Source of the DNA: Thermoflexales bacterium
GTDB taxonomy: Bacteria > Chloroflexota > Anaerolineae > J036 > Brachytrichaceae
Direction: 5' to 3'
Length of the DNA stretch: 64,000 nt
Assembly (NCBI GenBank): GCA_025057935.1
Contig: JANWUW010000088.1
Coordinates: forward strand, 19,425-83,424
Part shown: piece by piece, positions 75 through 24,551 of the stretch
How the letters are laid out: each line of letters opens with the position of its first letter
How positions within the stretch are numbered: position 1 is the stretch's first letter
Translations under genes and position numbers: made by a program
The notes under the pieces: model-generated
Seen by the model: only the letters and a program-made list of their open reading frames with translations
Databases searched by the model: none
Told to the model about the DNA's origin: nothing

Positions 75-1655
75 GTGTGGTCTGCTGTGGTGGCGCTCGG
101 GCTGCTGCTCTCGCCGCTGCTTGTGAGCGCCTCGGCTAGCGTGGTCGCATTACGGTGGCAACTGCCGTCTGTGGCATGGCGCTGGGCTGCAGCCGCGGCT
201 CTGACGAGCGCAGCCGCGTTTGGCTTAGGCGCGCTCTCGCTGCCAGAGGCAGGCGTGGTGCTCGGCGGTTGGCTGCCTGTGTCTGCATTCGGTGTACCGC
301 TTGCGTTGCGCGCAGAGCCTGCTGCGGTTGTGCTGGCGCTGGCGTGGTTTGCCGTGCAGCTCGATGCGATGCTCCGCGCGCAGCGGCTGCCGAGCGCCTC
401 GCAAGTCTGGGCGCTCGCGCTGACGAGCAGCGCGCTGGTGACGATTGCGCTCGCGCAGAACTTGGTGACGTTGCTCGTCGGCGTGGCGTTGAGCGATTGG
501 CTGTGGGCTTGGCAGCGCTTCCCACGGCAAGACCCGAACCGCGAAAGCAGCGCCTTTGCGGTTGGGCTTTTGCTGCGCTTGGTTGGGCTGACGCTGCTTG
601 TGCTCAGCTTTGCGGCGCACTACAACGCCTACAGCAGCGCTAGTATCGGTCTGTTCCCGCTCGCGGCAAGCCTTGCTCCTTTGGGGGCTGCAGCCATTGG
701 ATTGCGGTTGACGTTCGCGCCGTTTATCCGCTTCGCAGCCGCATCCTTCGATTCAATCCAGCAGTTCGGCCTCTTCTCAACGCTGCTGCTTCAGCATCGC
801 CTTGCCGAGGCAGGATGGACCGCTCTGCCAGGCTGGTTCGAGGGTTGGGCAGTGTTGAGCGTTGGGCAAAGCTTGGTGCTCGTCCTCAGCAGACGCACGC
901 GAGAGATGCGCCTCATCCCAGCAGCTTCTGCGGCGCTTGTTGCGGCGCTCGGTGCGCATGCGGACGCAGCGTCTCAGGCTGTTGCTGCAGTAGCTTGGTT
1001 GGTCGGTGCATCATTGGCGTGCTCTGTGCCGCTGGAGCGCAGGGCGATCCTCAACAGTGTGCGGCGGCTGGTCGGCACGGGCATACTGCTGGTTGTGCCG
1101 CTGTGGGTGGGCAGCTTCGAGACCGTCAGTGGAAGCGAGCGCTGGATGTTGGGCCTAGCTGCGTTGGGCGTGGCGATGTTGATCGCGCGCCCTGTCTTCG
1201 TTGCGCTGCGCCTGTGGCGCACAGTGCGCCTTGAATTGCCGCGCGCCTCGCGTGCCGAGCAGGCAACGCGCTGGGGGAGTTTAATCTTGCTTCAAGCGTT
1301 GGTCCTCATTACTAGCCTAGCGCTGCGCCCAGGTGAAGAGGCAGCGCTGAGTTCGCGCTTGAGCCTCGAGAGCAGCGCGTGGATGGTGGGCGCGCTGGGT
1401 TGTGCACTAGGCGGTTGGTTGCTGGGGCAGAGGCTGCAAGCGCGCGTGCCCCGTTTTGTGCACGGCATGCAGGCGATGAGCGCGCGTTTCGTCGCTGGTG
1501 TGGATGTTGCGATTGCGGTGATGCTCGGCGCCCTGCAGCGGCTCGGCACAGGGCCCGCCCGTGTGTTCGACGCCCTCGAGCGCGACGGTGCGTTGGCGTG
1601 GCTGATCGCGTTGGTGTTGTTGATCGCGCTGACGACGCACGTGCCGACACCATGA
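75..1655 (+). CDS. polytopic integral membrane protein, family not recognised
   Basis: 526-aa ORF (GTG start per track), rich in A/L/V/G/W with many hydrophobic spans. Its TGA overlaps the next ATG (ATGA at 1652-1655), which suggests a coupled two-gene membrane operon. Confidence 0.55.
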   Translation: MWSAVVALGLLLSPLLVSASASVVALRWQLPSVAWRWAAAAALTSAAAFGLGALSLPEAGVVLGGWLPVSAFGVPLALRAEPAAVVLALAWFAVQLDAMLRAQRLPSASQVWALALTSSALVTIALAQNLVTLLVGVALSDWLWAWQRFPRQDPNRESSAFAVGLLLRLVGLTLLVLSFAAHYNAYSSASIGLFPLAASLAPLGAAAIGLRLTFAPFIRFAAASFDSIQQFGLFSTLLLQHRLAEAGWTALPGWFEGWAVLSVGQSLVLVLSRRTREMRLIPAASAALVAALGAHADAASQAVAAVAWLVGASLACSVPLERRAILNSVRRLVGTGILLVVPLWVGSFETVSGSERWMLGLAALGVAMLIARPVFVALRLWRTVRLELPRASRAEQATRWGSLILLQALVLITSLALRPGEEAALSSRLSLESSAWMVGALGCALGGWLLGQRLQARVPRFVHGMQAMSARFVAGVDVAIAVMLGALQRLGTGPARVFDALERDGALAWLIALVLLIALTTHVPTP

Positions 1656-11849: not shown

Positions 11850-11931
11850 GGGGATGTGTCGTAATTGGCAGCCGAGCACGACTTAGGATCGTGTGCCGAA
11901 AGGCGTGTGGGTTCGAGTCCCACCATCCCCA
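11850..11931 (+). tRNA. tRNA-Leu (anticodon UAG), class II with long variable arm
   Basis: Folded by hand. Acceptor GGGGATG/CATCCCC, anticodon stem CACGA/TCGTG with loop CTTAGGA (anticodon TAG), variable arm TGCCGAAAGGCGT, T arm GTGGG-TTCGAGT-CCCAC, discriminator A. No encoded CCA. Confidence 0.85.
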
Positions 11932-11943
11932 ATGTTGGCGATC

Positions 11944-13356
11944 ATGAACTTAAACGTTGAATTCCTCGACACCCACGAAGCACGCCTCACCATCATCCCC
12001 GACGAGACCAGCGTCCAAGCAGCGCGCGACCGTGTGCTGCGCGCAATCAACAAGCAAGTGCGCATTCCGGGGTTTCGCCCTGGGCACGCTCCTGCGCATT
12101 TGGTGATACAGGCTATCGGTGGGCCCCAAGTGCTCGCGCTTGAAGCAAATGAGCAGCTTCTCAAGGAGCTGTATCCGCGTGCGCTTGAGGAGGCGCGGAT
12201 CAACCCCTACGCCGCCGGGGTGCTGGAGGACACGCTCCAAGACCCGCTGCGTTTCGTGGTGCGCGTGCCGCTACAGCCGGTGGTGGATCTCAAGGACTAC
12301 CGCTCTATCCGCCTGCCTTTCCCCGAGGTTGTTGTGAGCGAGGAGGAAGTCGCCGAAGTGCTGGAGGACATTCGTCGCCGTCACGCTGTGCTCGAGCCAG
12401 TCGAGCGCACGGCGGAATGGGGCGATGCAGTTGCCTTTGCCGTCTTCAGCCTTGAGGAGGGCGAGGACAAGCCGCGACTTTTGCTTGAGGCTCGCGACGA
12501 CCGACCGTGGCTGCTTAACCAGCCGAAAGAAGGCGAAGCGCAGCAGGGCTACGTGCCCCAGATCATGGCGATGCTGGTAGGCATGGCAGCAGGTGAGACG
12601 AAAGAAGGCACGTTGACCGCGCCGGAGCGCGAGCCGGAAGCCGATCAACCTACCGAACCGCAGGCTGAAGCAGCACAGCCGCGCACTATGCGCGTGCGCG
12701 TTGAGGTGCGTCGCGTAAGCAAGTACATCCTGCCCGAGTTGGATGATGCGTTGGCGCAAGCAGTGGGCGCTTACAGCTCGTTGGATGAGCTGCGCGCAGC
12801 CGTGCGCGCGCAACTGCGCGATATGAAGCAGCGCGAGGCTGAAAGCGAATATGAGCGCCAAGCCCTCGAGGCGTTCACCGCGCTGGCGGAGGTGAAGTTC
12901 CCGCCCGCCATGCTCGACCACGAACTGAATCAGGTGCTTGCAGAATATAAGCAGCAGATTCAGGAGCAGGAGGGCTTGCCCTACGAGGAATGGCTGAAGG
13001 TCAGCCAGCGCACTGATGAAGAGATTCGCGCCGAGTTGCGCCCCGTTGCCGAGCGGCGCCTGCGCCGCGCGTTGGTGGTCGGCGCGCTCGTGCGCCAAGA
13101 GGGCATTCAGTTGAGCGAGGCAGAGCTCGAGGAGAGCATTGAGGAGATCAGCCGCTTCGCTGCACAGATCGGCGAGAAACGTGCCGATGTGCGTCGCCGT
13201 TACGCCCCTGGCAGCGAGGCGCGCGCTGACCTTCGGGCGCGCATGCTCTACGAGCGCGCGCTCGCGCACATGGCGCGCATCGCTCGTGGCGAGCTTGAGT
13301 CTGCCCAAGCACCAACTGGGCAACCTGCTGAGCCGGTCGCCTCGGCGCAAAGCTAA
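11944..13356 (+). CDS. tig: trigger factor
   Basis: Track ORF 11893 would overlap the tRNA, so it is trimmed to ATG 11944 (MNLNVEFLDTHEARLTI). GFRPGHAP ribosome-binding signature. Long acidic C-terminal arm. Confidence 0.9.
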   Translation: MNLNVEFLDTHEARLTIIPDETSVQAARDRVLRAINKQVRIPGFRPGHAPAHLVIQAIGGPQVLALEANEQLLKELYPRALEEARINPYAAGVLEDTLQDPLRFVVRVPLQPVVDLKDYRSIRLPFPEVVVSEEEVAEVLEDIRRRHAVLEPVERTAEWGDAVAFAVFSLEEGEDKPRLLLEARDDRPWLLNQPKEGEAQQGYVPQIMAMLVGMAAGETKEGTLTAPEREPEADQPTEPQAEAAQPRTMRVRVEVRRVSKYILPELDDALAQAVGAYSSLDELRAAVRAQLRDMKQREAESEYERQALEAFTALAEVKFPPAMLDHELNQVLAEYKQQIQEQEGLPYEEWLKVSQRTDEEIRAELRPVAERRLRRALVVGALVRQEGIQLSEAELEESIEEISRFAAQIGEKRADVRRRYAPGSEARADLRARMLYERALAHMARIARGELESAQAPTGQPAEPVASAQS

Positions 13357-13392
13357 CACAACGCTAATGCCTGCTTGGTAGAGTGCCAACAA

Positions 13393-14064
13393 ATGGCGAA
13401 GCTACCTATACCCGACACCTTCCTGAAGGCGCAGTTCGAGGCGGCGCGCAATGTGATCCCCATGGTCATTGAGACCACGGGTCGTGGCGAGCGCGTCTAC
13501 GACATTTACTCGTTGCTGCTGAAAGAGCGCATCGTCTTCCTTGGCACGCCCATCAACGACCAGGTCGCCAACCTGATCGTCGCGCAGTTGCTCTTCCTTG
13601 ATCGCGAGGACAACGAGAAGGACATCAACTTCTTCATCAACTCGCCGGGCGGCTATGTGTATGCCGGCATGGCGATCTACGACACGATGCAGATGATCGC
13701 TGCGCCGGTAGCGACCTTCGCGGTTGGGCTGACGGCAAGCTTCGGCACGCTGCTGCTGCTTGCTGGCACGAAGGGCAAGCGCTATGCCCTGCCGCACGCC
13801 ACTATTCACATGCACCAGCCCATTGGCGGCGCCCAAGGTCAGGCGACCGATATCGAGATCCAAGCGCGCGAGATCCTGCGCATCAAGGACATGCTCAACA
13901 AGATCATCGTGCGCCACACGAACATGACCGAGGAGCAGGTGCTCAAGTACACCGACCGCGACGTGTACTTGACGCCGGAGCAGGCGAAGGAGCTGGGCGT
14001 GATCGACGCCATCACCGAGCTGGACGCGCGCAAGGCAAAGATGCTCGACGGGAAAGCAGTGTGA
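13393..14064 (+). CDS. clpP: ATP-dependent Clp protease proteolytic subunit
   Basis: [19 protein letters not shown], catalytic Ser context ([11 protein letters not shown]), [12 protein letters not shown] 13393 preferred over the TTG at 13375. Confidence 0.95.
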
Positions 14065-14095
14065 GTCGTTCGTCCGCAGGCTTGCAAATCTCATG

Positions 14096-14122
14096 AAGCC
14101 CCGCCCAAGCGGCGGGGCTTTT
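14096..14122 (+). terminator. intrinsic terminator after clpP
   Basis: AAGCCCCGCC-caagc-GGCGGGGCTT followed by TT. The perfect 10-bp GC-rich stem also argues for the downstream start at 14132. Confidence 0.7.
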
Positions 14123-14131
14123 GAATGTGTC

Positions 14132-14962
14132 ATGAAGATCGTTGTTACTGGGGCAAAAGGCACAATCGGGCAAGCAGTGGCGCGTTACGCTGCCGCACAG
14201 GGCGTGCAAGTGTTGGCAGTGGATAACGTAGGGCGCGGCGATGGCGAAGGAGGCTACTTGGCGGCTGACCTCACTGACCTAGGACAATGCTGCGAAGTAT
14301 TGCACGGCGCTGATGCGGTGATCAACCTAGCCGCGGTCTCGGCAGCGCTGCTATACCCAGGCGCGCAGACGTTGATGACCAACGTGGCGATCACCTACAA
14401 CGTGTGCATGGCGGCGGTGCTGGTCGGCGTGCCGCGCGTGGTTTGGGCGTCGTCGGTGCAAGTGTTTCACAGTTACCCGACGGTGCGGCGCGCGCAGTAC
14501 CGCTATTTCCCCGTGGACGAGGAGCATCCCAACGACCCACAAAACGAGTATGCGCTCTCCAAAGTTCTCGGCGAGCAGATCGCCGAGTATTTCGCGCGCC
14601 AGCATCGCTTGACCGCGGTGAGTTTGCGCTTGCCGGAGGTGGTGCCGCCGGAGATGTGGGCGGATCTGCCGCGCCCCATTGAGCCATGGGAGCACTCGCC
14701 GCTGCCACACTACGTGCACCTGGAGGACTGTGCGCGCGCCTGCTTCCTAGCGGCGACGGTCTCGCTGCCGCCTGCTACCCACCACGTGGTGCTCATCACC
14801 GCTGAGGACACCAGCGCCGACATCCCCACGCGCGAGCTCATCCAACGTTACTACCCCGAAGCAGAGGTGCGCGCAGCGCTGCCTGACTTTGCATCGTTAT
14901 TGAGCGGCAAGCGCGCTGAGGTGTTGCTCGGCTTTCGCGCGGCGCATCGCTGCCATGCTTGA
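14132..14962 (+). CDS. NAD-dependent epimerase/dehydratase family protein
   Basis: MKIVVTGAKGTIGQAV Rossmann motif, YALSKVLGE (YxxxK). Confidence 0.75.
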   Translation: MKIVVTGAKGTIGQAVARYAAAQGVQVLAVDNVGRGDGEGGYLAADLTDLGQCCEVLHGADAVINLAAVSAALLYPGAQTLMTNVAITYNVCMAAVLVGVPRVVWASSVQVFHSYPTVRRAQYRYFPVDEEHPNDPQNEYALSKVLGEQIAEYFARQHRLTAVSLRLPEVVPPEMWADLPRPIEPWEHSPLPHYVHLEDCARACFLAATVSLPPATHHVVLITAEDTSADIPTRELIQRYYPEAEVRAALPDFASLLSGKRAEVLLGFRAAHRCHA

Positions 14963-15003: not shown

Positions 15004-18000
15004 CTACGCTTGGGGCGTCTTCAACCCCATCGTGCACAGAATCTCGATGCGCGCCTCGGTCGGCTCGCTCTCGACGACCAGCTTTTGCTCATCGTCTAGG
15101 CTGCTCACCAGCTCCACAAGCTCTGCATCTTCCATCTCAAGTTGCAGCGCGCGCCGCAGGCGTTCTTCCACTTCGCCCTGCAGGGCGAAGCGGTAAAGCC
15201 GATCGGCAAGTCTCTGCGCCTTCTGGCGCAGCTCAGCCGACGCTCGCTGATTTTCGGCGATCCTGCGCAAGCGCTGGTATAGCTTGCGGCGCGACCTGCG
15301 CGTCGGCCCAAGCGCGCCCTCCTGCGAAGTGGCGCTCGTCTCTGCTGATTTGAGTGCTTCGTAGGCGGCATGCATGTGTTTGAACACGTCCGGGTTTTCG
15401 AGGGCGGGCGTGTCTGGCTCGCAGCGCATTGCTTCAAACACCTCTGCTAGCGATTGCTCCAACCGCTCGCCACTTGTGCTCACGCGCACAAGGCGGTCTT
15501 CGTGCTCGGCGCCGCGCACAACGCGCGCGAAGATGATCGCGCCATCGGGTCCACCCGTATCGTTGCGGCGGGTGACGTATACCTGCGGCGGCAACGCTTG
15601 TGCGCGCTGGCGCATTTCCTCTGGCGCACTGAGCCATACCTCCAGCGCGCGGCTGGTTAGGTCAACCTCATCGTCCTCTTCGGCGTCGCTGAGCACATGC
15701 GCCTCCTCGGTGTATAGCTCCTTCAGTGTGTGCGCAGCTTTTTCGTCGAAGAACGTCTCGTCTGTGCCGATCACCTGTTGGTTCTCCAGCAGGCGGCGCG
15801 AAAGCGATTGGCGCAGGCGGATGACGCGCTCGATCCCTTCCGCTGGCAAAAACGAATACACAAGGATGGTGGAGTGGCGCTGCCCAATGCGATCCACGCG
15901 ACCTGCGCGCTGGATCAGGCGCACGATTGCCCAAGGCAAGTCAAAGTTGACCACGATGTGCGCGTCTTGGAGATTTTGACCCTCGCTGAGCGTATCGGTG
16001 GTGATCAGCACGCGCAGCTCGGTTTCGCCGCTCTGCAAGCCGCCGTTCGCGTCTGGGCTGAAGCGGCGCACGAGGGCACTGGGGTCGTCAGTTTCGCTAG
16101 TGACCACGCCGACGTCGTTCACACCGCGGTTTCGCAGATAGCGACCGAGTGCCTCGGCAGTGTCGGCGAACTGCGTGAACACTAACACCTTGTCCATCCC
16201 GTGCTCTTCTTGGATTAACCTAAGCAGGTGCGTGAACTTGGGGTCTTCGTCATCGCGCCATGCGCGCGCAAGGTGCAAGATGCGAGCGAGGATCGCGTTG
16301 TCCTGCTCTAGGGCGCGGCTCAGCGCGTCGCGGTTGAAGTACGCTGTTGGCATCCAACGGAAGCGCGCTTCAAACTCCTCCTGCAAGCTGCGATACACCT
16401 CGCCAGCTCGCTGGCGTAATGAGCCAAGGATCGCCTCTGGCGTGGCTCGAGCTTCGAGGTCAAGCTCGTCAACGCGCTCTGTCATGTCAGCGCGGTCTGT
16501 GTCCTCGTCCTCGAACTCGGCTTCAGTGTCTTGAGAGGTCGGATCGAAGCGCGCGATGTCCTGCTTGCCGATGGGCAGCGGCGCGCCCTGCTCCAGCGCG
16601 TGCAGCGCGACGGCGTTGCGCAGGATTTGGCGCTCGATCGAAAGCAGGAAGGCGCGCCCGCTCGACTCCAAGCGCTTGAACAAGCTGGTGCGCGCGAAGC
16701 CAATCAACCGCTGCCCAGCGCGCGCAAGGTCTTCAGCGATCTGTTTGACCTCGCGCGGGGCGCTTTCTAGAGCGCGCGCGTCCACGTAAGCCGCCAGCCC
16801 ATAGCGCGCTAGGGTGAGCTGCTCGATCAGGGTGAGCACCTCATCGCTGTAGAGCCTGTCGTAGAGCGTGCCGCTCAGCGGCACTTTGATCGTGCGCGGC
16901 TGGCGCTCGGGGAAGTAAAAGCGTCGGTTGTTGACGAGCACAAAGTAGCGCCGCTGCTGCGCGTCAAATTGCGCATAGTTGCGGATGATGTAGCCGCGCG
17001 TGCGCCGCACCATGTAATGCCGCAGCAGCTCGCGCCAATCCTCGGGGAACTCGCTCCGCTCGAAGCAGCGTAGGCTGTTCAGCGGCGCTTGAAGTTGCGC
17101 AGCGATCATGTGCTCGCTCACACCTTTCGCTTTTTGCTCCTCTAGGTAGCGCTGCGGGAAGCTGGGCAGCTCTTTTTGCTCGTCGAGGAAAAGGCGGAGC
17201 TGGTTGCTGAGGTCGGTGAAGCGCTTGTTGTATGGCGTGGCGGTGAGCAAGATCACCTGAGGGTCGTTCTCTTGGATGTAGTTGTAAATGGCTTGGTAGC
17301 GTTGCGCCTTGCGGTTGGTGAGGTTGTGGCTTTCGTCAATGATCAGCGTGCGGTAGCGCCGCAGCCGTGGCAGCTCCTCGATGACGCGACCCAGCGAGAG
17401 CGTTTTGGCGTCCGCGCCAACGCACCGCAGATATTCATCGAGGTAGCGCTCCCACATGGGTTGGAGCTTCGGCGGGCAAATCACTAGGGTCGAGCGCGGT
17501 TCGATCTCGTGCAGCACGCGCGCCAGCGCTGTCGCCATCAGCGTCTTGCCCAAGCCGACCACATCGCCAAGGAGCACGCCGCCGTGGCGCTGCACGAGCC
17601 GCGCCGCGGTTTGGACGGCTGCAACCTGGTAGTCCATCAGCTCCTCTCGCAGGTCAGCCGGCAGCTCGAACTCGCGCTTGCCCAAGCGAGCGTCTTCGGA
17701 GAGGTGATAGGCGACCTTGAGATACACGAGGTAAGCCAAGCTGGGGATCTGCGCGGTGGATTCACTCGCCCAAGAGCGCTCAACGGCCTCCACCAAATCC
17801 TCGGAGATGTCTACTGCGCAGTCGCCCTCCCAGCGCTGGTCGAACCACGCCTCGAGCTTGCGCGCGGCGTCTTGGTCAACGACGTCCACGTTCAGCTCGC
17901 CTTGTTCATACAGCCCAGCGTAGGTCAGGTTGCTGCTGCCGACGTAGCCGATCAGCGGGGTGATGGGGTCGTCGCGGCGTAGCAGATAGAGCTTGGCATG

Positions 18001-18405
18001 GAGCGGGTAGCAGAGGTAAAGCTTGATGCGGACGATGCCGCAACGGATCTGCTCGGCGAGCAGCCGCAGCGCTGCTTGCGCCTGCGCGGTGGGAACGCCG
18101 CGGGTGATCTGCGCGCGCGCTTCGTCGATCACCGCTTGCCGCACAGCGCGCCGATGCCTGCCGTCTGCCAACTTGCGCTCAAACGACGCCGGGTCAACCC
18201 CATGCTCCGGCTGGATCATCCCGAGCAGCACGCGGCACGGCGGATCGCTTGGGTTCGCCGGCAGCGAGCGCACGAGGTTTCCCAGAGCGCTCCAGCCTTT
18301 GACGTTGAGGAAGCCAATGCACACCTTGAACTGATAGGCGCGGTTGGCAAATTGATTGAGCTGGTCGAGCAGCTTGACCTGTTCGTTATCGATGATCGTG
18401 GGCAT
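15004..18405 (-). CDS. PLD(HKD) nuclease-domain / SNF2-family helicase fusion protein
   Basis: Single HKD motif LHAKLYLLRRDDPITPLIGYVGSSNLT (17929-18000). SF2/SNF2 motifs GLGKT (17542-17556), DESH (17326-17337), LLTATPYNK, QRAGRVDRIGQ. 1133 aa. Confidence 0.85.
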   Translation of the reverse strand: MPTIIDNEQVKLLDQLNQFANRAYQFKVCIGFLNVKGWSALGNLVRSLPANPSDPPCRVLLGMIQPEHGVDPASFERKLADGRHRRAVRQAVIDEARAQITRGVPTAQAQAALRLLAEQIRCGIVRIKLYLCYPLHAKLYLLRRDDPITPLIGYVGSSNLTYAGLYEQGELNVDVVDQDAARKLEAWFDQRWEGDCAVDISEDLVEAVERSWASESTAQIPSLAYLVYLKVAYHLSEDARLGKREFELPADLREELMDYQVAAVQTAARLVQRHGGVLLGDVVGLGKTLMATALARVLHEIEPRSTLVICPPKLQPMWERYLDEYLRCVGADAKTLSLGRVIEELPRLRRYRTLIIDESHNLTNRKAQRYQAIYNYIQENDPQVILLTATPYNKRFTDLSNQLRLFLDEQKELPSFPQRYLEEQKAKGVSEHMIAAQLQAPLNSLRCFERSEFPEDWRELLRHYMVRRTRGYIIRNYAQFDAQQRRYFVLVNNRRFYFPERQPRTIKVPLSGTLYDRLYSDEVLTLIEQLTLARYGLAAYVDARALESAPREVKQIAEDLARAGQRLIGFARTSLFKRLESSGRAFLLSIERQILRNAVALHALEQGAPLPIGKQDIARFDPTSQDTEAEFEDEDTDRADMTERVDELDLEARATPEAILGSLRQRAGEVYRSLQEEFEARFRWMPTAYFNRDALSRALEQDNAILARILHLARAWRDDEDPKFTHLLRLIQEEHGMDKVLVFTQFADTAEALGRYLRNRGVNDVGVVTSETDDPSALVRRFSPDANGGLQSGETELRVLITTDTLSEGQNLQDAHIVVNFDLPWAIVRLIQRAGRVDRIGQRHSTILVYSFLPAEGIERVIRLRQSLSRRLLENQQVIGTDETFFDEKAAHTLKELYTEEAHVLSDAEEDDEVDLTSRALEVWLSAPEEMRQRAQALPPQVYVTRRNDTGGPDGAIIFARVVRGAEHEDRLVRVSTSGERLEQSLAEVFEAMRCEPDTPALENPDVFKHMHAAYEALKSAETSATSQEGALGPTRRSRRKLYQRLRRIAENQRASAELRQKAQRLADRLYRFALQGEVEERLRRALQLEMEDAELVELVSSLDDEQKLVVESEPTEARIEILCTMGLKTPQA

Positions 18406-18849
18406 GGGCGTGTTGGGTTGAGAGTTCTTAAGCGCGTTTCACATCTGACAGCGGAGATTGTGGAACCACAGCTGAAGGCAGTGTGAGCGCACGCGGCGCG
18501 CTCCTACAAGAGCCACGTGTATGCGGATTGTGCATTGTGGATTGCGCGCGTTGTAGGGGGCGCCTTTGCGGCACCCTAGCTGTTGTGGGCGTATAGTGCA
18601 TCCTCGCGCGGGTACGCAGGCGAGTTGAGTGCGTCACGCGCACAGCAGGAGCACGTAGCGTATGCCCGAGTGCCAATTATGGGCAGCGCGGGCGTGCGCA
18701 GCGCGAATTGTGTGCCTCGTGCATAGCCCAGGGTCGTGTGAGACTACCTGCGTTGGAGACAAGTGCGTCGCAAGTGCGTAGCCAGCAGAGAATGCTCCAA
18801 ACTCCAAACATATCCATGATGCGAGGTGTGCTTCTTCGTGGCAAGACTG

Positions 18850-19608
18850 TCATTTGCTGTCTCGGCGCAGTGTTGGGTTGCGCTGCCAGAACCTCGACAC
18901 CAGTCGGTCGAAGAAATTCTCAATCCGCAAGCCACTCTGGCTGTCTGGAAAGCTCGGGTGTATCTGCACAGGTGTCGCGTTGAAGTCCACCAAGAGCAGC
19001 GCAGTCTCCTCGTAGTGACCAACTTGCGACTCAGGGTCAATGCGCCCTGACACGCCTTGTAGCAACCGAAGCACGCGCCAGGCAAGAGGTGTAGGCTGCC
19101 CGCTCTGATCAATTACTTGCTCGCCACTTGCTGTCTCGTATGGCAGGATCAACAGGAATCCGAAAGCCAGCATGGGGAAACGCGTGTGCAAGTTAGCTGC
19201 GTCCGCAAAGTATTCCTCGAAGCGATTTCTGGCGTTCGCCGAAATACTGGACATCTGGCTCTTAACCGAGAGCGCCAATAGTGGACCGCTAGTCTCTGAC
19301 CACAGTGCGAGATCGAGTGTCTTGTCTACATAGCCTCCTAGGACGTTGACCTCGCGTTCGAGGAGCAGGTTTTGTGCTCTTCGGGCCGGCGCGCTCTCGG
19401 CAGGCACGACATCAATATCGCGGGTGCGTTCGAGGTGCAGGTTTTGGACTCTTCGGGTCGGCGGCAGATCTGTGCGAAGCAGCTCGCGAATGCACCAATC
19501 GTGGAAAGCTCTGATAAAGCTACTGCTGCGCACTGCCGCTTGAGGATTCTGCTTATAGCTCTCGTAAGCAATTCGAGCGGTGTTCTGTAAGTCTGCTAGG
19601 TCAATCAT
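18850..19608 (-). CDS. 252-aa orphan protein, possible PD-(D/E)xK-like nuclease core
   Basis: Starts 16 nt after the methyltransferase stop on the same strand. YVDKTLDLAL-x11-LALSVKSQ-x14-EE resembles a D...SxK...E variant nuclease core. GC is lower than the flanks. Confidence 0.6.
   Translation of the reverse strand: MIDLADLQNTARIAYESYKQNPQAAVRSSSFIRAFHDWCIRELLRTDLPPTRRVQNLHLERTRDIDVVPAESAPARRAQNLLLEREVNVLGGYVDKTLDLALWSETSGPLLALSVKSQMSSISANARNRFEEYFADAANLHTRFPMLAFGFLLILPYETASGEQVIDQSGQPTPLAWRVLRLLQGVSGRIDPESQVGHYEETALLLVDFNATPVQIHPSFPDSQSGLRIENFFDRLVSRFWQRNPTLRRDSK
19354..19463 (-). repeat. in-frame 38-nt near-duplicate at 72-nt period inside the 252-aa gene
   Basis: 19354-19391 and 19426-19463 match at 34/38 nt. 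They encode P(T/A)RR(V/A)QNL(H/L)LER twice, 24 aa apart. Confidence 0.75.
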
Positions 19609-19624
19609 TTTTTGACTGTTTCGG

Positions 19625-22600
19625 TCAAGTTGAGTGCGCTTTGCTAATGCGTGCCCGCACGAGAGCAGACAGCTCAGCGTATAAGTCGTCCCGTGCAGAC
19701 TGCGTTAAGCCTAGAGCATCGAGTAGCACCGTATCTAGCACTTGTCGGTCCGCCTGCTGCAACTCCTCGTCGAGATCGTAAATGACACGGCATTGCATTT
19801 GCTCAACTGCCTCGATGAGCGCTGCTGTGCGCTTCTTGCCTAGGCTACTTGGGGTAACAATCGGCAGCTCGTTAGCGATGCTGACGTTGATCCCTGACGC
19901 GCCAGCACCAGGCTTGCGTCCAGTCAACTCGAAATACAAGAATGAGAATGAGAAGTTAAGCAATCCGAACAGCACTCGCTCGTCAATCTCTGTTTGATAC
20001 CCGTAGAAGTTCTTGTTCAGCGCACAACTATCAAGATTCCAAGCGAAGAAATAGCGCCGATACACAATCTCAGGCACAACCACTCTGCTACGCAGCAATT
20101 CTCCCAGCTCATACCAGTGGCGCCGTCCCCTGAAGAATGGACGGCGATGAATACCCGCTTTCTCGGCTGCTTGGATATAGTCTCGCACAAGTCGATCCCT
20201 GCAGGTGCGATCAGCGATTAGCACCCAGTAAGCAGCATCTTCTGCGCGGAAGCTGTATCGCTTGCATTCGTTGACGGAGCGCATCACAGGCAATAAGTGG
20301 GAGTCTGGCAGCTCGACTTCTCGTGGCTCTCCGAATGCTGTGGTCAAGTAGAGTCCTGGCGAAAGCCGTTTCACGAAGAAGAAGTCGTTCGCACCAGTAG
20401 TCACCCCGAGACGGGCTACTGCGATCTGTCTGACGGGGATCATCTGCGTGTGAGCCATCAGTAAGTGGAAGACATTTGATGCGCGCAGGTACTTACCCCA
20501 CTTGCTGCCTTCATAGCGTTGCTTCTCATGAAAGGCGAGACTTGCTCCTATACGCTTGCTATCTCGCTGCGATAACCCCTGATTCCAGAGCTCACTACGA
20601 GATACAGGTAGAATGCAACAGTCCGCGCATGTTATTGGGACGCAAGTGTTGTCTGCAGCTTTGAAGACCTCGCCAAGCGGCACCTCGATGAAGGGATGCT
20701 TGAACAGAATGAAACGCACGAAGTCATCCTTGTCGTGACACGCACTGTTGCCAACTAGCGCAATAACAGTGTTAACCTCAGCCCGGCTAAACGAGCGCTC
20801 AGCGCTGTTGTCTATGACCATCCTGAGTCGCCCTTGCTGCAACAAAAACGCTTGCAAGTCACGCCCGTAGCCCACATCGAGCCACGAGTTGGAAGTGATA
20901 AAGCACAGCGTGCCTTTCGGTCCGAGCAATCGCAGGGAAGCAGCGTAGAAGTAGACGTATAGGTCCGCCCAGCCGCTTATGCTTCGTCCATTGCTCGACA
21001 AGCCAGTTCTCACTGCTAGTTGTTGAAGCTTCTCGCGGTAGTTTTGTTTCTGCTGCTCCCATTCACGTGAGCCTTCTCCGCCAAACTCTTCTGGGCTCAG
21101 GCTGGGTGGAGCTATCATCTGCTTGCGCACGTAGGGCGGGTTGCCGATCACGATGTCGAAGCCTTGCGCTTGACCTCCGAAGATTTCCACGAAGGCGATG
21201 TCCCACACGAACGGGGGGTTGCCTCCAGCAGCGTTGAGCGCGCGCTGCGCTTGTCGCAGGCGTTCGTGCTCTGCTTCGAGCGTGGCGATTTCTGCAGCGA
21301 GCGCCTCGTGCTTATCAGCAGCGCCGTCATGGTCGCCGACGCCGCCTACACCGATGCTGAGCTGCGCGCCGGGCAGGTTTGCGAGCGCGCGGCGCTTGTC
21401 CTTCAACGCGTCGCCGAGCGCCTTGATCCGATGTTGCAGGATGTCATGGAACAGCTTGACTTCTGCGTGTCGCAACGCCGACTCGCTCATGCTGGAGCTG
21501 CCCTGGTAGAAGCGCAACTTGTCTGCCTTGAGTTGCGTGATGCGGCCTTGCAGGTTGGGCGGCAGGTTCACGGCGCTGCGGCGCAGCCCGAAGAGCACAT
21601 CGCCGACTTCTTGCACGAGGCTGTCGCCCTGGCGCAGCTTAAATGAGAGGTTGGGCAGCAGCGGCTTAAGCTGCGCCTCGGGCTGGCTCAGCTCGGTCTC
21701 GACGGTGAGCTGGAGCCACAAGCGCAACTCAGCAACGTGCACAGCCCAGTCCATCGCGTCCACGCCGTAGAGCTGCTCGCCGATGATGCGCCGTCGGCGG
21801 TCGTAGGGCGTCTCCTCGCGCCCAAGGGCGTAGGCGCAGCGCGCTTGGAGGTCGTCCAACACTTGCAGCATGCCGACGAGGAACGCGCCGCTGCCGCAAG
21901 CGGGGTCGCAGATGGTGAGGCTGCGCACGGCTGCGTCGAGCGCTGACCAGAGATTTCGCTCTGTGATGCGCTGGTCGGCTTCTTGTTTTTGGTCTGGCTC
22001 GACGGCGAAGACCCACTCGTAGAGCAAGTCGCGTGATACGTCGAGGCGATTCGCCAGCGCGTCCACAAGCGCTAAGCGGCACATCAGGTCTATCTCCACG
22101 CGCGGCGTGTAGAAGATGCCCGCGCGCCCGCGTTGGTCGTCAACAGCGCGCCCGCGCTCGGTGAGGTTAACCAAGCTCTCGTACACCTTGCCGAGCATCT
22201 CGGGGTCCACTGCGACTTCTACGTCCAACGGCGTGGATTCACTCACGGTGAAGTTGTAGCGCTCCAAGAAGCCCGGCGTGCTGTCGTTGAACGCATCGAA
22301 GAGCTGCTCGAAGAAAGCGTCGGGGATGTTGAAGCGGCTGCTGTGTTTGGTGTCGAGATGGTTCTCGGTGAACAGCCCGCCGTTGAGATACGGCATGTGC
22401 GCCAGCGCCTCGCGGATGTGTGGCGGGAAGTGCGCGTGCGCGCTGCTGCCAGCTTGAAAGCGCCGATTGAACGCTTCAAAGAACAGCACTTGCAGCCACT
22501 TCCTGAAGAAAGCGTCCTTGCCGAACGCTTGCTCTCGGTAGCTCTTCCAGAAGTGGCGCACGAAGTGGCGGTCGTTCCCGAGCCAATAGCCGCCATCGGC

Positions 22601-23272
22601 GTAGCGCTTGCGCTGGATGAAGTAGAGGAACAAGAGGCGGTTGAGGAGCTGAAGCGCGTAATCGTGCGCCCAACGCGCGTCTTTGGTCTGTTCGTGAAGC
22701 TCCGCTTGGAGCGCCTCGAAGACGCGCTTGTAGTCTTCGAAGAAGCGCTCGGTGACAGCCTCTACCTTGAAGGCTTCGTCGAGGCACTGCCGCACTTGGC
22801 TCAAGCTAGGTTCTGCATCGTGCGGCAGGCTAAGTTTTCCGAGCTGCTCCAATGTGGTGCGCGCTGGCGCGTTGCGTTCGTAGGGCAGGGTGCGCAGCTC
22901 GGTGGGAGCGTTTGCATCGTGGTAGCGCGGCTGCGGGCGCACGAACAGCGCTTGGTCGCCTTGCTTGTCGAGGTACACCACGAGATGCTCCTCGGCAACA
23001 GGGCGCAGCTTGCGGAAGATCGCGCGGCGCGTGGTGAGGTTGGGCAGCCGATCCAGTTGCAGCGCGAAGACACGCACGCCACCGGCTTCGGCGATGCGCT
23101 CCAGCGTGACTGTTTGCTGCAGCGGCGCGTCCACGTCCAGACGTTGCGAGCCGTGCTCGACGTTCCAGAGCAGCACCTCGCCGAACAAGACGCGCAAGCG
23201 GTCGAAGGTGATCGGCGAGCCTTCGAGATGTTTGGCAAGACGCTTGAGAACGCTGTGGGTTGAGTCGTTCAT
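19625..23272 (-). CDS. large gamma-class N6-adenine DNA methyltransferase with C-terminal TaqI-type specificity region
   Basis: Motif I DPACGSGAF (21881-21907), motif IV NPPY (21131-21142, FDIVIGNPPYVRKQ), C-terminal GVTTGANDFFFV. 1215 aa. No nuclease motif recognised. Confidence 0.85.
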   Translation of the reverse strand: MNDSTHSVLKRLAKHLEGSPITFDRLRVLFGEVLLWNVEHGSQRLDVDAPLQQTVTLERIAEAGGVRVFALQLDRLPNLTTRRAIFRKLRPVAEEHLVVYLDKQGDQALFVRPQPRYHDANAPTELRTLPYERNAPARTTLEQLGKLSLPHDAEPSLSQVRQCLDEAFKVEAVTERFFEDYKRVFEALQAELHEQTKDARWAHDYALQLLNRLLFLYFIQRKRYADGGYWLGNDRHFVRHFWKSYREQAFGKDAFFRKWLQVLFFEAFNRRFQAGSSAHAHFPPHIREALAHMPYLNGGLFTENHLDTKHSSRFNIPDAFFEQLFDAFNDSTPGFLERYNFTVSESTPLDVEVAVDPEMLGKVYESLVNLTERGRAVDDQRGRAGIFYTPRVEIDLMCRLALVDALANRLDVSRDLLYEWVFAVEPDQKQEADQRITERNLWSALDAAVRSLTICDPACGSGAFLVGMLQVLDDLQARCAYALGREETPYDRRRRIIGEQLYGVDAMDWAVHVAELRLWLQLTVETELSQPEAQLKPLLPNLSFKLRQGDSLVQEVGDVLFGLRRSAVNLPPNLQGRITQLKADKLRFYQGSSSMSESALRHAEVKLFHDILQHRIKALGDALKDKRRALANLPGAQLSIGVGGVGDHDGAADKHEALAAEIATLEAEHERLRQAQRALNAAGGNPPFVWDIAFVEIFGGQAQGFDIVIGNPPYVRKQMIAPPSLSPEEFGGEGSREWEQQKQNYREKLQQLAVRTGLSSNGRSISGWADLYVYFYAASLRLLGPKGTLCFITSNSWLDVGYGRDLQAFLLQQGRLRMVIDNSAERSFSRAEVNTVIALVGNSACHDKDDFVRFILFKHPFIEVPLGEVFKAADNTCVPITCADCCILPVSRSELWNQGLSQRDSKRIGASLAFHEKQRYEGSKWGKYLRASNVFHLLMAHTQMIPVRQIAVARLGVTTGANDFFFVKRLSPGLYLTTAFGEPREVELPDSHLLPVMRSVNECKRYSFRAEDAAYWVLIADRTCRDRLVRDYIQAAEKAGIHRRPFFRGRRHWYELGELLRSRVVVPEIVYRRYFFAWNLDSCALNKNFYGYQTEIDERVLFGLLNFSFSFLYFELTGRKPGAGASGINVSIANELPIVTPSSLGKKRTAALIEAVEQMQCRVIYDLDEELQQADRQVLDTVLLDALGLTQSARDDLYAELSALVRARISKAHST

Positions 23273-23402: not shown

Positions 23403-24551
23403 ATGAAGGTAACCTGCCTGCAAGAGAACCTCGCGCGCGCGCTCAGCTTGGCAGGACGAGCTGTCGCTCCGCGCACTGCGACGTTGCCAGTGCTCACGCA
23501 CGTGCTGCTGGCAACCGACAACGGTCGCCTGAAGGTCGCCGCGACGAACCTCGAGCTCGGGATTAGCTGCTGGATCGGCGCCAAGGTTGAAAGCGAAGGC
23601 GCGGTGACCGTGCCGGCGCGGGTGCTCAGCGAGTTAGTGTCGCTGTTGCCGCCTGATCAGGTCGAGCTTGAGTTGAACGTGCGCACTCAAGCCTTGCGCG
23701 TGCGCGGCGGTCACACTGATGCCAGCATCAAAGGCATTGACGCGCAAGAGTTCCCCATCATCCCTACCTTCGACGCCGCCTCAGCCGCGCTGGTCAGCCC
23801 AAGTGTGTTGAAGAAGCTCATCGCCCAAGTGGCGTTCGCAGCGACAACCGACGAGGCGCGACCCAATCTCACTGGCGTGCTCACCAAGCTTGAGGATCAG
23901 CAAATCACCATGGTCGCAACGGACGGTTTCCGCCTCAGCTTGCGCAAGGATGCGCTGCACGCGCCAGTTGCCGCAGAAGGGCCGCTCTCGTTGTTGATCC
24001 CGGCGAAGGCGCTCACCGAAGTTGCGCGCGCGCTCGGTGAGCAAGAAAAGCCCGTGGCGATCAGCGTCACCCCTTCGCACGGTCAGGTGCTCTTCCACAT
24101 GGAGAGCGTGGACGTCGTGGCGCAATTGATTGATCAGAAGTTCCCGCCCTACGAGTCCATCATTCCCCGCAAGTGGGACACGCGCGTGGTGGTGAACACG
24201 GCTGAATTCCTCAAGGCGTGTCGCCAAGCCAGCGTCTTCGCGCGCGAATCGGCTGACGCAGTGCGCTTGAGCATCAAGGCAAGCGACGAGCTTGGTCCGG
24301 GGCGCATGCTGGTGAGCGCGCGCGCTGCCGAAAGTGGTGAGAACGTCACCGAGCTGGAGGCAGCGGTCAGCGGCTCAAGCATCGAGATCGGCTTCAACGT
24401 GCGTTTTCTGATCGAGGCGCTGAACGCTGTGGATGCGCCGCAGGTGGCGTTGGAGATGACCACGCCGACCAGCCCAGCAATGCTGCGCGCCGTCGGCGAC
24501 GATCAATTCCTGCACCTCATCATGCCCATGCATCTCTCGCGCGCGACGTGA
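23403..24551 (+). CDS. dnaN: DNA polymerase III beta sliding clamp
   Basis: MKVTCLQENLARALSLAGRAV..., three-domain length (382 aa), C-terminal YLIMPM-like HLIMPMHL. Confidence 0.95.
   Translation: MKVTCLQENLARALSLAGRAVAPRTATLPVLTHVLLATDNGRLKVAATNLELGISCWIGAKVESEGAVTVPARVLSELVSLLPPDQVELELNVRTQALRVRGGHTDASIKGIDAQEFPIIPTFDAASAALVSPSVLKKLIAQVAFAATTDEARPNLTGVLTKLEDQQITMVATDGFRLSLRKDALHAPVAAEGPLSLLIPAKALTEVARALGEQEKPVAISVTPSHGQVLFHMESVDVVAQLIDQKFPPYESIIPRKWDTRVVVNTAEFLKACRQASVFARESADAVRLSIKASDELGPGRMLVSARAAESGENVTELEAAVSGSSIEIGFNVRFLIEALNAVDAPQVALEMTTPTSPAMLRAVGDDQFLHLIMPMHLSRAT

Follow-up and report, generated by a model that had tools for sequence, protein, structure and literature searches.

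The locus described here lies in a 64,000-nucleotide (nt) stretch of the genome of a Thermoflexales bacterium (contig JANWUW010000088.1), hereafter the window, and consists of three co-oriented genes on the minus strand: one for a large DNA methylase (P1), one for a 252-amino-acid (aa) nuclease-like protein (P2) and one for a protein in which a phospholipase D (PLD) nuclease domain is fused to an SNF2 helicase motor (P3; Table 1). A first-pass annotation, made from the letters alone, had taken the three open reading frames (ORFs), set between housekeeping genes, for a restriction-like trio that fits no named defence system. The coordinates and lengths of the ORFs and the nature of the flanks match that description exactly, and its restriction-like logic of methylase, superfamily 2 (SF2)/SNF2 motor and nuclease is borne out by the domain content. 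The stop codon of P1 lies 16 nt from the start codon of P2. Compared loci and proteins carry L and P numbers, respectively.

To place the three genes in a wider setting, we scanned GTDB with one genome per species, which returned at least 598 loci with relatives of P3, and analysed the best 80 of these together with loci reached through the individual proteins; the P3 relatives (36–75% identity) span many phyla. A co-oriented P1-like gene adjoins the P3 relative in 78 of 83 loci, and the other five end at a contig edge right after the helicase gene. In all 78 the neighbour matches the region of P1 around aa 26–374 and the methyltransferase (MTase) core. The helicase gene precedes the methylase gene in 71 loci, the order seen in the window being a minority arrangement (7 loci), and the two genes abut or overlap in about 55. 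More than 70 loci hold the pair without P2, mostly as abutting genes, and ORF clustering across about 80 loci found no other near-universal neighbour of the pair. Judged by gene neighbourhood, the P1–P3 pair is the conserved unit and the trio is not. The genes of the trio do co-occur elsewhere, but only the pair is constant and P2 is rarely present; P2 homologues stand mostly beside short methylases that lack a helicase, and the trio does not survive as a functional unit.

Table 1. Features of the restriction-like locus and its neighbours, in window coordinates. AdoMet, S-adenosylmethionine; AF2, AlphaFold2; pLDDT, predicted local distance difference test; TRD, target recognition domain.
Feature	Position	Strand	Size	Remarks
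P1	19625–23272	minus	1215 aa	ORF list
P1 N-terminal alpha/beta domain, aa 1–160	22793–23272	minus		AF2 pLDDT 82; no catalytic triad
P1 helical domain, aa 161–440 (LNGGLF, G-FYTP), and AdoMet MTase core, aa 441–850 (DPACGSGAF, NPPY)	20723–22792	minus		Family alignment
P1 TRD, aa 851–1215	19628–20722	minus		TaqI/Eco57I_C type; part of the proposed acquired cassette
P2	18850–19608	minus	252 aa	ORF list
In-frame tandem duplication in P2	19354–19463	minus	72 nt, 24 codons	38-nt repeats, 89% identical, 72 nt apart
P3	15004–18405	minus	1133 aa	ORF list
P3 PLD(HKD) domain, aa ~1–230	17716–18405	minus		Pfam PLDc_2, RE_NgoFVII
P3 RapA-like SNF2 motor, aa ~240–900		minus		Pfam SNF2-rel, Helicase_C
P3 conserved C-terminal region, aa 900–1133	15004–15708	minus
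Low-GC tract covering P2 and the P1 gene's 3′ third; proposed horizontally acquired cassette	~18700–21100			~0.51–0.56 against 0.62 background; segments and 300-nt windows
P2–P3 spacer	18406–18849		444 nt	No convincing ORF
NAD-dependent epimerase	14093–14962	plus		Convergent to P3
dnaN	23403–24551	plus		Divergent from P1

The single HKD motif and the full SNF2 motor that the first-pass annotation had seen in P3 are both present, with H136, K138, G284–T288 (GLGKT, containing K287), D357–H360 (DESH), TATP and Q832–Q842 (QRAGRVDRIGQ) invariant in 20 homologues. In PLD proteins a single HKD motif implies an active site formed by a dimer. The closest PDB sequence matches of P3 are RapA and other SNF2 ATPases; a Pfam match to ResIII spans the generic helicase motif region only, and no modified-base reader domain was detected with Pfam, also when the C terminus was searched in isolation. 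The family is large, with at least 8000 clusters at 90% identity and full-length relatives at about 48% identity. Curated NCBIfam models miss P3 widely: it scores 135 bits against a cut-off of 1100 for NF042964, 111.5 against 610 for NF038317 (DrmD) and 103 against 500 for DpdE. NF042964 is a PLD-domain anti-phage protein model that we presume stands for the MtsD-type effector. The top PADLOC match, 'C3a139 HKD+Snf2', was set aside as an identification, being only a cluster from the neighbourhood of type III CRISPR loci in a 2018 survey and no named system.

P1 matches Pfam Eco57I (1.9e-27) and MmeI_Mtase as well as the PADLOC REase_MTase_IIG models (best 5e-51), and has more than 7000 homologues, many of them full length at about 45% identity. 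The gamma-class motif order reported earlier holds, with DPACGSGAF (aa 456–464) ahead of NPPY (711–714) and the TaqI-type signature GVTTGANDFFFV at 956–967. The match to PADLOC DrmMI (7e-20) is partial and confined to the MTase core, and the NCBIfam PglX models give 38–47 bits against cut-offs of 400–900. From these motifs and matches P1 is best read as a gamma-class N6-adenine DNA methyltransferase and specificity subunit of PglX/MmeI/Eco57I-like type.

Alignments of 52 partner methylases and of 32 closer homologues contain no invariant acidic/lysine triad of the D...(D/E)xK kind in aa 1–160 of P1, and the AF2 model of aa 1–450 (pLDDT 82; an alpha/beta domain followed by a helical domain) has no significant PDB match and resembles no nuclease, in keeping with the earlier failure to recognise a nuclease motif in P1. 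A nuclease domain at the P1 N terminus was therefore rejected, there being neither catalytic residues nor a structural match. Searched in isolation, the P1 TRD, the P1 N terminus and the P3 C terminus gave no significant Pfam match. Among the 52 partner methylases, conservation begins at about aa 170 with LNRLLFLYF, PYLNGGLF and G-FYTP, followed by motifs I and IV; the helical domain and MTase core are strongly conserved and the last third, the TRD, is hypervariable. When divergence of the helicase was compared with that of each part of the methylase in 51 full-length pairs (mirror-tree analysis), the correlation fell from 0.80 for the N terminus through 0.63 for the helical domain and 0.57 for the core to 0.30 for the TRD, all four values being inflated by shared phylogeny. 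This gradient fits a putative N-terminal helicase-coupling domain combined with a TRD that would be freely exchanged, and we propose that P1 aa 1–160 forms such a non-catalytic coupling domain.

P2 had been called a protein of no recognised family, and no Pfam or NCBIfam model matches it; the REBASE-derived PADLOC REase_II model PDLC03558, by contrast, does so at 2.5e-13. The D...SxK...E core suspected in the first pass is upheld by 18 aligned homologues, in which E42, K96, D99, S114-x-K116, E131/E132 and D136 are invariant; this arrangement is compatible with the D...SxK...E form of the PD-(D/E)xK site in Cfr10I/NgoMIV-type enzymes. Foldseek searches with the AF2 model (pLDDT 83; predicted template modelling score (pTM) 0.81) returned weak matches, with PD-(D/E)xK nucleases making up most of the top list (PaqCI, XisH, BbvCI, BstEII, BsoBI, Card1/Can2 and SgrAI), and a P2 profile matched no sequence in the PDB. 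A word-indexed search yielded 19 clusters of P2 relatives, and an exhaustive search 635, 302 and 38 representatives at E values of 1e-3, 1e-10 and 1e-30, respectively. In every readable context the P2 homologue lies 0–40 base pairs (bp) downstream of an Eco57I/TaqI-type N6-adenine methylase. In at least 13 loci (L003–L005, L092, L094, L101–L103, L105, L108–L111 and L118) this is a short methylase (541–609 aa) with no helicase nearby, and a long methylase together with a PLD–SNF2 gene is found beside P2 only in the window, L097, L001/L002 (equal to L099) and probably L091. Motifs, profile match and neighbourhood together identify P2 as a putative member of a PD-(D/E)xK type II restriction endonuclease-like family, and thus as no orphan.

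Public gene calls shorten P2: the NCBI product (P0001) has 185 aa and the L097 copy (1576–2252) 133 aa, although intact full-length ORFs exist, so that in annotations the trio looks like a pair with a small hypothetical protein beside it. The tandem duplication in P2 (24 aa; 'RRVQNLHLER...'/'RRAQNLLLER...') sits in a low-confidence loop of the AF2 model (aa 53–69), before the first beta-strand, and no homologue has it, not even the 71%-identical copy in L097. In L003/L004 (9176–10732), a paralogue of about 246 aa, 28% identical over the nuclease core, precedes the P2 homologue after one short methylase; by analogy with BbvCI, the two could form a two-subunit (heterodimeric) endonuclease.

Base composition and identity profiles set P2 and the P1 TRD apart from the remainder of the locus as a low-GC mosaic cassette. 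GC content at third codon positions is 0.59 in the P1 TRD and 0.63 in P2, against 0.76–0.81 in the rest of P1 and 0.78 in P3. The methylase of L006, whose helicase is 72% identical to P3 and which carries the HEC-01 genes in place of P2, is 58% identical to P1 in the N-terminal domain, 73% in the helical domain and 66% in the core, and only 26% in the TRD. The P1 TRD is instead 47–49% identical to those of L001, L091 and P0143 and 74% identical to that of L097, where the whole trio is kept at 71–80% identity. L001 shows the converse of L006, with a helicase 29% identical to that of the window alongside a TRD at 47% and a P2 at 55%. Sliding identity places the crossover from the L006 backbone to the L001 lineage at about P1 aa 700–900. 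Furthermore, aa 917–1197 of P1 match the Type II MTase model PDLC03267, which matches the short methylase of L005, partner of a P2 homologue, at full length. For P0143 and P0145, which have P1-like TRDs, both contigs stop at the methylase stop codon. A strict linkage of TRD and P2 was considered and is weakened by L095 and L096; it holds for the close TRD class only. The simplest reading of these profiles is that a classical type II system donated the TRD and the endonuclease cognate to it through recombination inside the methylase gene. If P2 was captured together with the TRD of P1, its recognition sequence should be the one that P1 methylates today, and we infer that P2 would cut the sequence that P1 protects.

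A counterpart of the pair lies on plasmid pSYSX of Synechocystis sp. PCC 6803, where a PLD–SNF2 gene (39.5% identical to P3 at the protein level) is followed by an antitoxin-like gene, vapC and then the gene for the 1100-aa methylase Slr6050. Slr6050 aligns with P1 over aa 29–374 and 448–720 and matches the PADLOC model PDLC03628 'REase_MTase_IIG', to which P1 matches too, over its whole length with 2662 bits; it is the seed of this PADLOC/REBASE-derived 'Type IIG' model. The full-length match indicates that REBASE-derived resources treat this methylase family as stand-alone Type IIG, so the earlier statement that the locus fits no named system holds in that no protein reaches a curated cut-off, but has to be amended in that the methylase family is already filed, with Slr6050 (M.Ssp6803IV) seeding the model. 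Hagemann et al. linked Slr6050 (M.Ssp6803IV), as a tentative assignment, to GA(m6A)GGC, an asymmetric motif modified on one strand, noted weak HSDR_N similarity in it and called it essential after the slr6050 knockout could not be segregated, with the neighbouring helicase gene unmentioned (PMC6105098). An undeletable Slr6050 fits the prediction of a live, toxic helicase–nuclease partner. Beside the pair on pSYSX (L098, 14924–17444) stands a DUF6527/ThiF-like E1/E2-UBC/multiubiquitin cluster resembling ubiquitin-like conjugation defence modules, which places this copy in a defence-island-like region.

The space between the methylase and helicase genes, or after them, acts as a variable slot whose contents differ from locus to locus. 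P2 occupies it in the window, L097 and L001/L002; an ABC-ATPase and DUF4276 pair matching PADLOC HEC-01A/B in L006 and L090; AlbA_2/HATPase_c_4 proteins in seven loci; KilA-N proteins in three; and VapBC on pSYSX. Further occupants between or after the pair are DUF3800, PIN, four-helix-bundle, GxxExxY and MTaX1–HNH proteins. The slot mirrors, by analogy, the 'genetic embedding' of genes inside Hma, BREX, DISARM and type I systems, in the study of which HEC-01 gave no protection (10.1101/2024.01.29.577857). A small DprA-like gene (PF02481, DNA_processg_A) follows the methylase gene in 23 of the 49 loci with enough downstream sequence, for example in L043 (17924–18664), L028, L054, L057–L059, L061, L073 and L074, sometimes beyond another variable slot. 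Neither the window nor its close relatives have this gene, which may serve part of the family as an optional third component.

Single loci show further variation around the pair. In L043, an MTaX1 + HNH endonuclease gene (16915–17919) lies between the methylase and DprA-like genes as an extra nuclease beside the pair, and a second methylase of the MmeI/Eco57I/TaqI_C type (914 aa; 19206–21950) lies just downstream. In L095 (12002–15006) and L096 (5904–9239), two assemblies from one study, the same PLD–SNF2 gene is intact in one (1111 aa) and divided into three ORFs of 328, 282 and 355 aa in the other, the split reflecting either pseudogenisation of the nuclease partner or an assembly error.

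The spacer between P2 and P3 matches nothing in Rfam at E ≤ 1 and resembles none of the fetched loci, and its only sigma-70-like site, a weak one, lies at 18844–18816 on the minus strand; the spacer may carry a promoter of P3's own. The equivalent spacer in L097 measures only about 157 nt. A hidden gene in this region was considered and rejected, given no credible ORF, no Rfam match and no likeness to the 160-aa gene of L001 or to other loci. Beyond the locus, mreB and mreC lie on the epimerase side and chorismate synthase and relA/spoT on the dnaN side, all housekeeping genes. Two minus-strand ORFs between mreB and the epimerase gene, at 12271–13392 (373 aa) and 13402–14163 (253 aa), have no Pfam match, and a 487-aa ORF on the opposite strand (11893–13356) overlaps the first.

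Guided by these observations, we consider it probable, though by no means certain, that the locus is composite, with two restriction modules that share one methylase; the methylase would mark self for two nucleases. The first module, ancient and widespread, would be a two-gene ATP-dependent restriction–modification (R-M)-like system. P1 would read a short site through its C-terminal TRD and methylate the host copies; P3 would dimerise to form one PLD active site, as in BfiI, SauUSI and MtsD; and P1 would recruit or license P3 at unmethylated sites through its N-terminal domain, whereupon P3 would translocate with ATP and cut foreign DNA. The second module, a recent add-on, would be P2, a metal-dependent enzyme that cuts the unmodified site of P1 without ATP. 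With P1 as the shared self-marker for two nucleases, anti-restriction directed against either one would be less effective.

The pair itself is widespread, probably mis-annotated and apparently without a name; what is of a known kind is methylase-guided ATP-dependent restriction with a PLD–helicase effector, combined here with a type II endonuclease. More tentatively, as a proposal that could prove right but to which we give somewhat less than even weight, the pair would be an unrecognised and very widespread two-component ATP-dependent R-M class, mis-filed as 'Type IIG' enzymes and 'helicase-related proteins', and the minimal self-sufficient form of the SNF2–PglX module of the DISARM, ARMADA and BREX type 3 kind. 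In it an N-terminal pseudo-nuclease domain would couple the methylase to the motor, and the TRD would be exchangeable together with a type II endonuclease, leaving one methylase to license two nucleases of different mechanism.

Several points weigh against this picture. The biochemical activities of P1, P2, P3 and the P3 family, the contact between P1 and P3 and a specificity common to P1 and P2 are predictions from sequence. Foldseek support for P2 is weak, with a best E value of 0.02, and the 24-aa duplication might impair the nuclease. L095 and L096 carry a TRD 41% identical to that of P1 without P2, and the close TRD class accompanied by P2 comprises just three to four independent loci. 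Shared phylogeny inflates the mirror-tree correlations, as stated with their values. The 444-nt spacer leaves P3 possibly transcribed separately. The motif of Slr6050 was assigned by elimination and its essentiality was not tied to the helicase gene (PMC6105098). Finally, we found no description of a stand-alone two-gene pair in the open-access literature, so 'unnamed' may be wrong.

Four other explanations have to be set beside the two-module composite. That P2 is a hitch-hiker in a hot-spot slot, unrelated to the specificity of P1 and acting as an independent or decaying nuclease or some other backup effector, is unlikely but worth keeping in mind: many unrelated genes fill the methylase–helicase slot elsewhere, the embedding of unrelated defence genes in multi-gene systems is documented (10.1101/2024.01.29.577857), and the internal duplication of P2 is unusual. 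Yet no P2 homologue was encountered that lacked an Eco57I-type MTase just upstream, P2 and the TRD have in common a composition and a phylogenetic affinity distinct from those of the rest of the locus, and the P2 reading frame and all its invariant residues are intact.

The adjacency of methylase and helicase in 78 of 78 loci, together with the co-variation of the P1 N terminus with the helicase, points to one system, and makes it improbable that P1 is a bifunctional Type IIG enzyme and P3 a separate protein, either a SauUSI-type, type IV-like nuclease dependent on modification or an SNF2 protein of DNA repair or transcription. P1 and Slr6050 do match PADLOC REase_MTase_IIG models, Slr6050 at full length, weak HSDR_N similarity has been noted in Slr6050 (PMC6105098) and the architecture of P3 is SauUSI-like; but neither the 52-member nor the 32-member alignment has conserved catalytic acidic or lysine residues at the N terminus, the structural model matches no nuclease, and no modified-base reader was detected in P3.

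There is little to recommend the reading of the first-pass annotation, an obligate three-component system whose P3- or P1-dependent restriction requires P2. The tight co-orientation of the genes and the recurrence of the trio in L097 (71–80% identity) and L001/L002 speak for it, and it has to contend with the more than 70 loci that hold the pair without P2, mostly abutting, with the at least 13 loci that hold P2 and a short MTase without a helicase, and with L006, whose helicase is 72% identical and whose slot contains HEC-01 instead. Highly improbable, finally, is a degenerate or minimal member of class 1 DISARM, ARMADA, BREX type 3 or MANTIS/BR type 2 whose other parts are lost or lie elsewhere in the genome: a RapA/BrxHII-like SNF2 protein with a PglX-like MTase is a common module of these systems and PADLOC gives partial matches to DrmD, DrmMI, BrxHI, PglX and HmaA, but YprA/DrmA, DUF1998, DUF499, DUF3780, PglZ and BrxC are absent from the window flanks and not recurrent in about 80 loci, the curated NCBIfam cut-offs are all missed widely, MtsC is alpha-class and P1 gamma-class, and a loss event would not recur in hundreds of species.

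The coupling by which the SNF2/PglX-like module of BREX, DISARM and ARMADA turns an unmethylated site into DNA destruction is difficult to dissect, partly because four to six proteins are required in each case. A natural counterpart of two proteins, with the PLD nuclease already built in, would offer a much simpler model of this coupling, and it occurs in hundreds of species, among them the tractable Synechocystis PCC 6803. If the pair is such a system, entries annotated as 'Type IIG' or 'helicase-related', thousands in number, would merge into a single system and a restriction partner would be added to methylome-to-gene assignments; the cassette of TRD and endonuclease would represent a route to swapping specificity and acquiring a second effector in one recombination step.

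Among the closest known systems is MANTIS (Gao_RL, BR type 2; MtsA–D), which is also methylase-guided and whose effector joins an HKD/PLD nuclease at the N terminus to an SF2/Swi2-Snf2 motor. P3 shares this architecture but is distant in sequence, scoring 135 bits against 1100 for NF042964, the presumed effector model. In MANTIS, adenine (hemi)methylation at short asymmetric sites marks self, and the tentative motif of Slr6050, GA(m6A)GGC, is asymmetric as well; members of the present family are likewise likely to methylate asymmetric sites on one strand, although the TRD of P1, of TaqI/BseCI-like type II origin, may direct the mark to one strand or to both. Unlike in MANTIS, the DUF499 AAA+ loader (MtsA) and DUF3780 protein (MtsB) are absent from the window and from about 80 related loci, and MtsC is alpha-class with a central TRD, whereas P1 belongs to the gamma class, has its TRD at the C terminus and carries a long N-terminal extension. 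Class 1 DISARM (DrmD–DrmMI), ARMADA (ArmA–ArmB) and BREX type 3 (BrxHII–PglXI) have in common with our locus an adjacent RapA/BrxHII-like SNF2 protein and a PglX-like (YeeA-related) gamma-class N6-adenine methylase, and DISARM too uses a PLD nuclease (DrmC). Their pair is always accompanied by YprA/DrmA, BrxC, PglZ or similar proteins, whereas here the pair stands alone and the PLD domain is fused to the helicase.

The genes that define those systems were looked for and not found. DrmA (YprA-like DEAD helicase) and DrmB (DUF1998) of class 1 DISARM are absent from the window flanks and not recurrent beside the pair in about 80 loci, the flanks contain neither the BREX PglZ phosphatase nor a BrxC/PglY ATPase, and the gene required for ARMADA is absent from the window and related loci. 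The earlier statement that the window has no DrmA/DrmB, PglZ or BrxC is in line with this, as is the placement of the locus outside DISARM, BREX, type I, type III and type ISP. Membership of MANTIS/BR type 2, DISARM, ARMADA and BREX was rejected on the same two grounds, absent core genes and missed curated cut-offs.

Type III and type ISP enzymes share with the pair a methylase/specificity component and an ATP-dependent SF2 motor–nuclease, and the earlier alternative of a split type ISP- or III-like enzyme comes closer to the truth for the pair, although methylase class, domain order and nuclease type differ. The Mod subunit of type III belongs to the beta class and has its TRD in the centre, and the nuclease of Res is a PD-(D/E)xK domain at the C terminus, in contrast to the gamma-class P1 and the N-terminal PLD domain of P3; type ISP combines an Mrr-like nuclease, helicase, MTase and TRD in one polypeptide, in contrast to two genes 1.2 kb apart with a PLD nuclease and an SNF2-type motor. 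P1 has the layout of type IIG/IIL enzymes (MmeI, Eco57I) and of BREX PglX, with helical domain, gamma-class MTase core and C-terminal TRD in one polypeptide; type IIG enzymes differ in their active N-terminal PD-(D/E)xK nuclease, P1 having no catalytic residues there and an obligatory separate helicase–nuclease partner. In the P1 TRD and P2 we see the arrangement of classical type II R-M systems of the TaqI/BseCI/Eco57I-methylase kind, a methylase gene directly before a small PD-(D/E)xK endonuclease gene, except that the partner is a 1215-aa subunit of a helicase system instead of a stand-alone enzyme of about 550 aa and that P2 has no close solved structure. P3 resembles SauUSI and CglI/NgoAVII, in which an NgoFVII-type PLD nuclease is coupled to an SF2 ATPase. 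CglI/NgoAVII, unlike P3, divides the PLD domain and a DEAD-Z1 motor between two proteins and uses a B3-like DNA-binding domain and a C5 methylase. SauUSI, a type IV enzyme that acts alone, has its own modified-cytosine reader at the C terminus, not detected in P3, and attacks methylated DNA, and the invariable N6-adenine methylase partner of P3 is the opposite of type IV logic. SauUSI and MtsD of MANTIS nevertheless provide the precedent for dimeric nucleases that join a PLD domain to an SF2 motor and act with or without a methylase.

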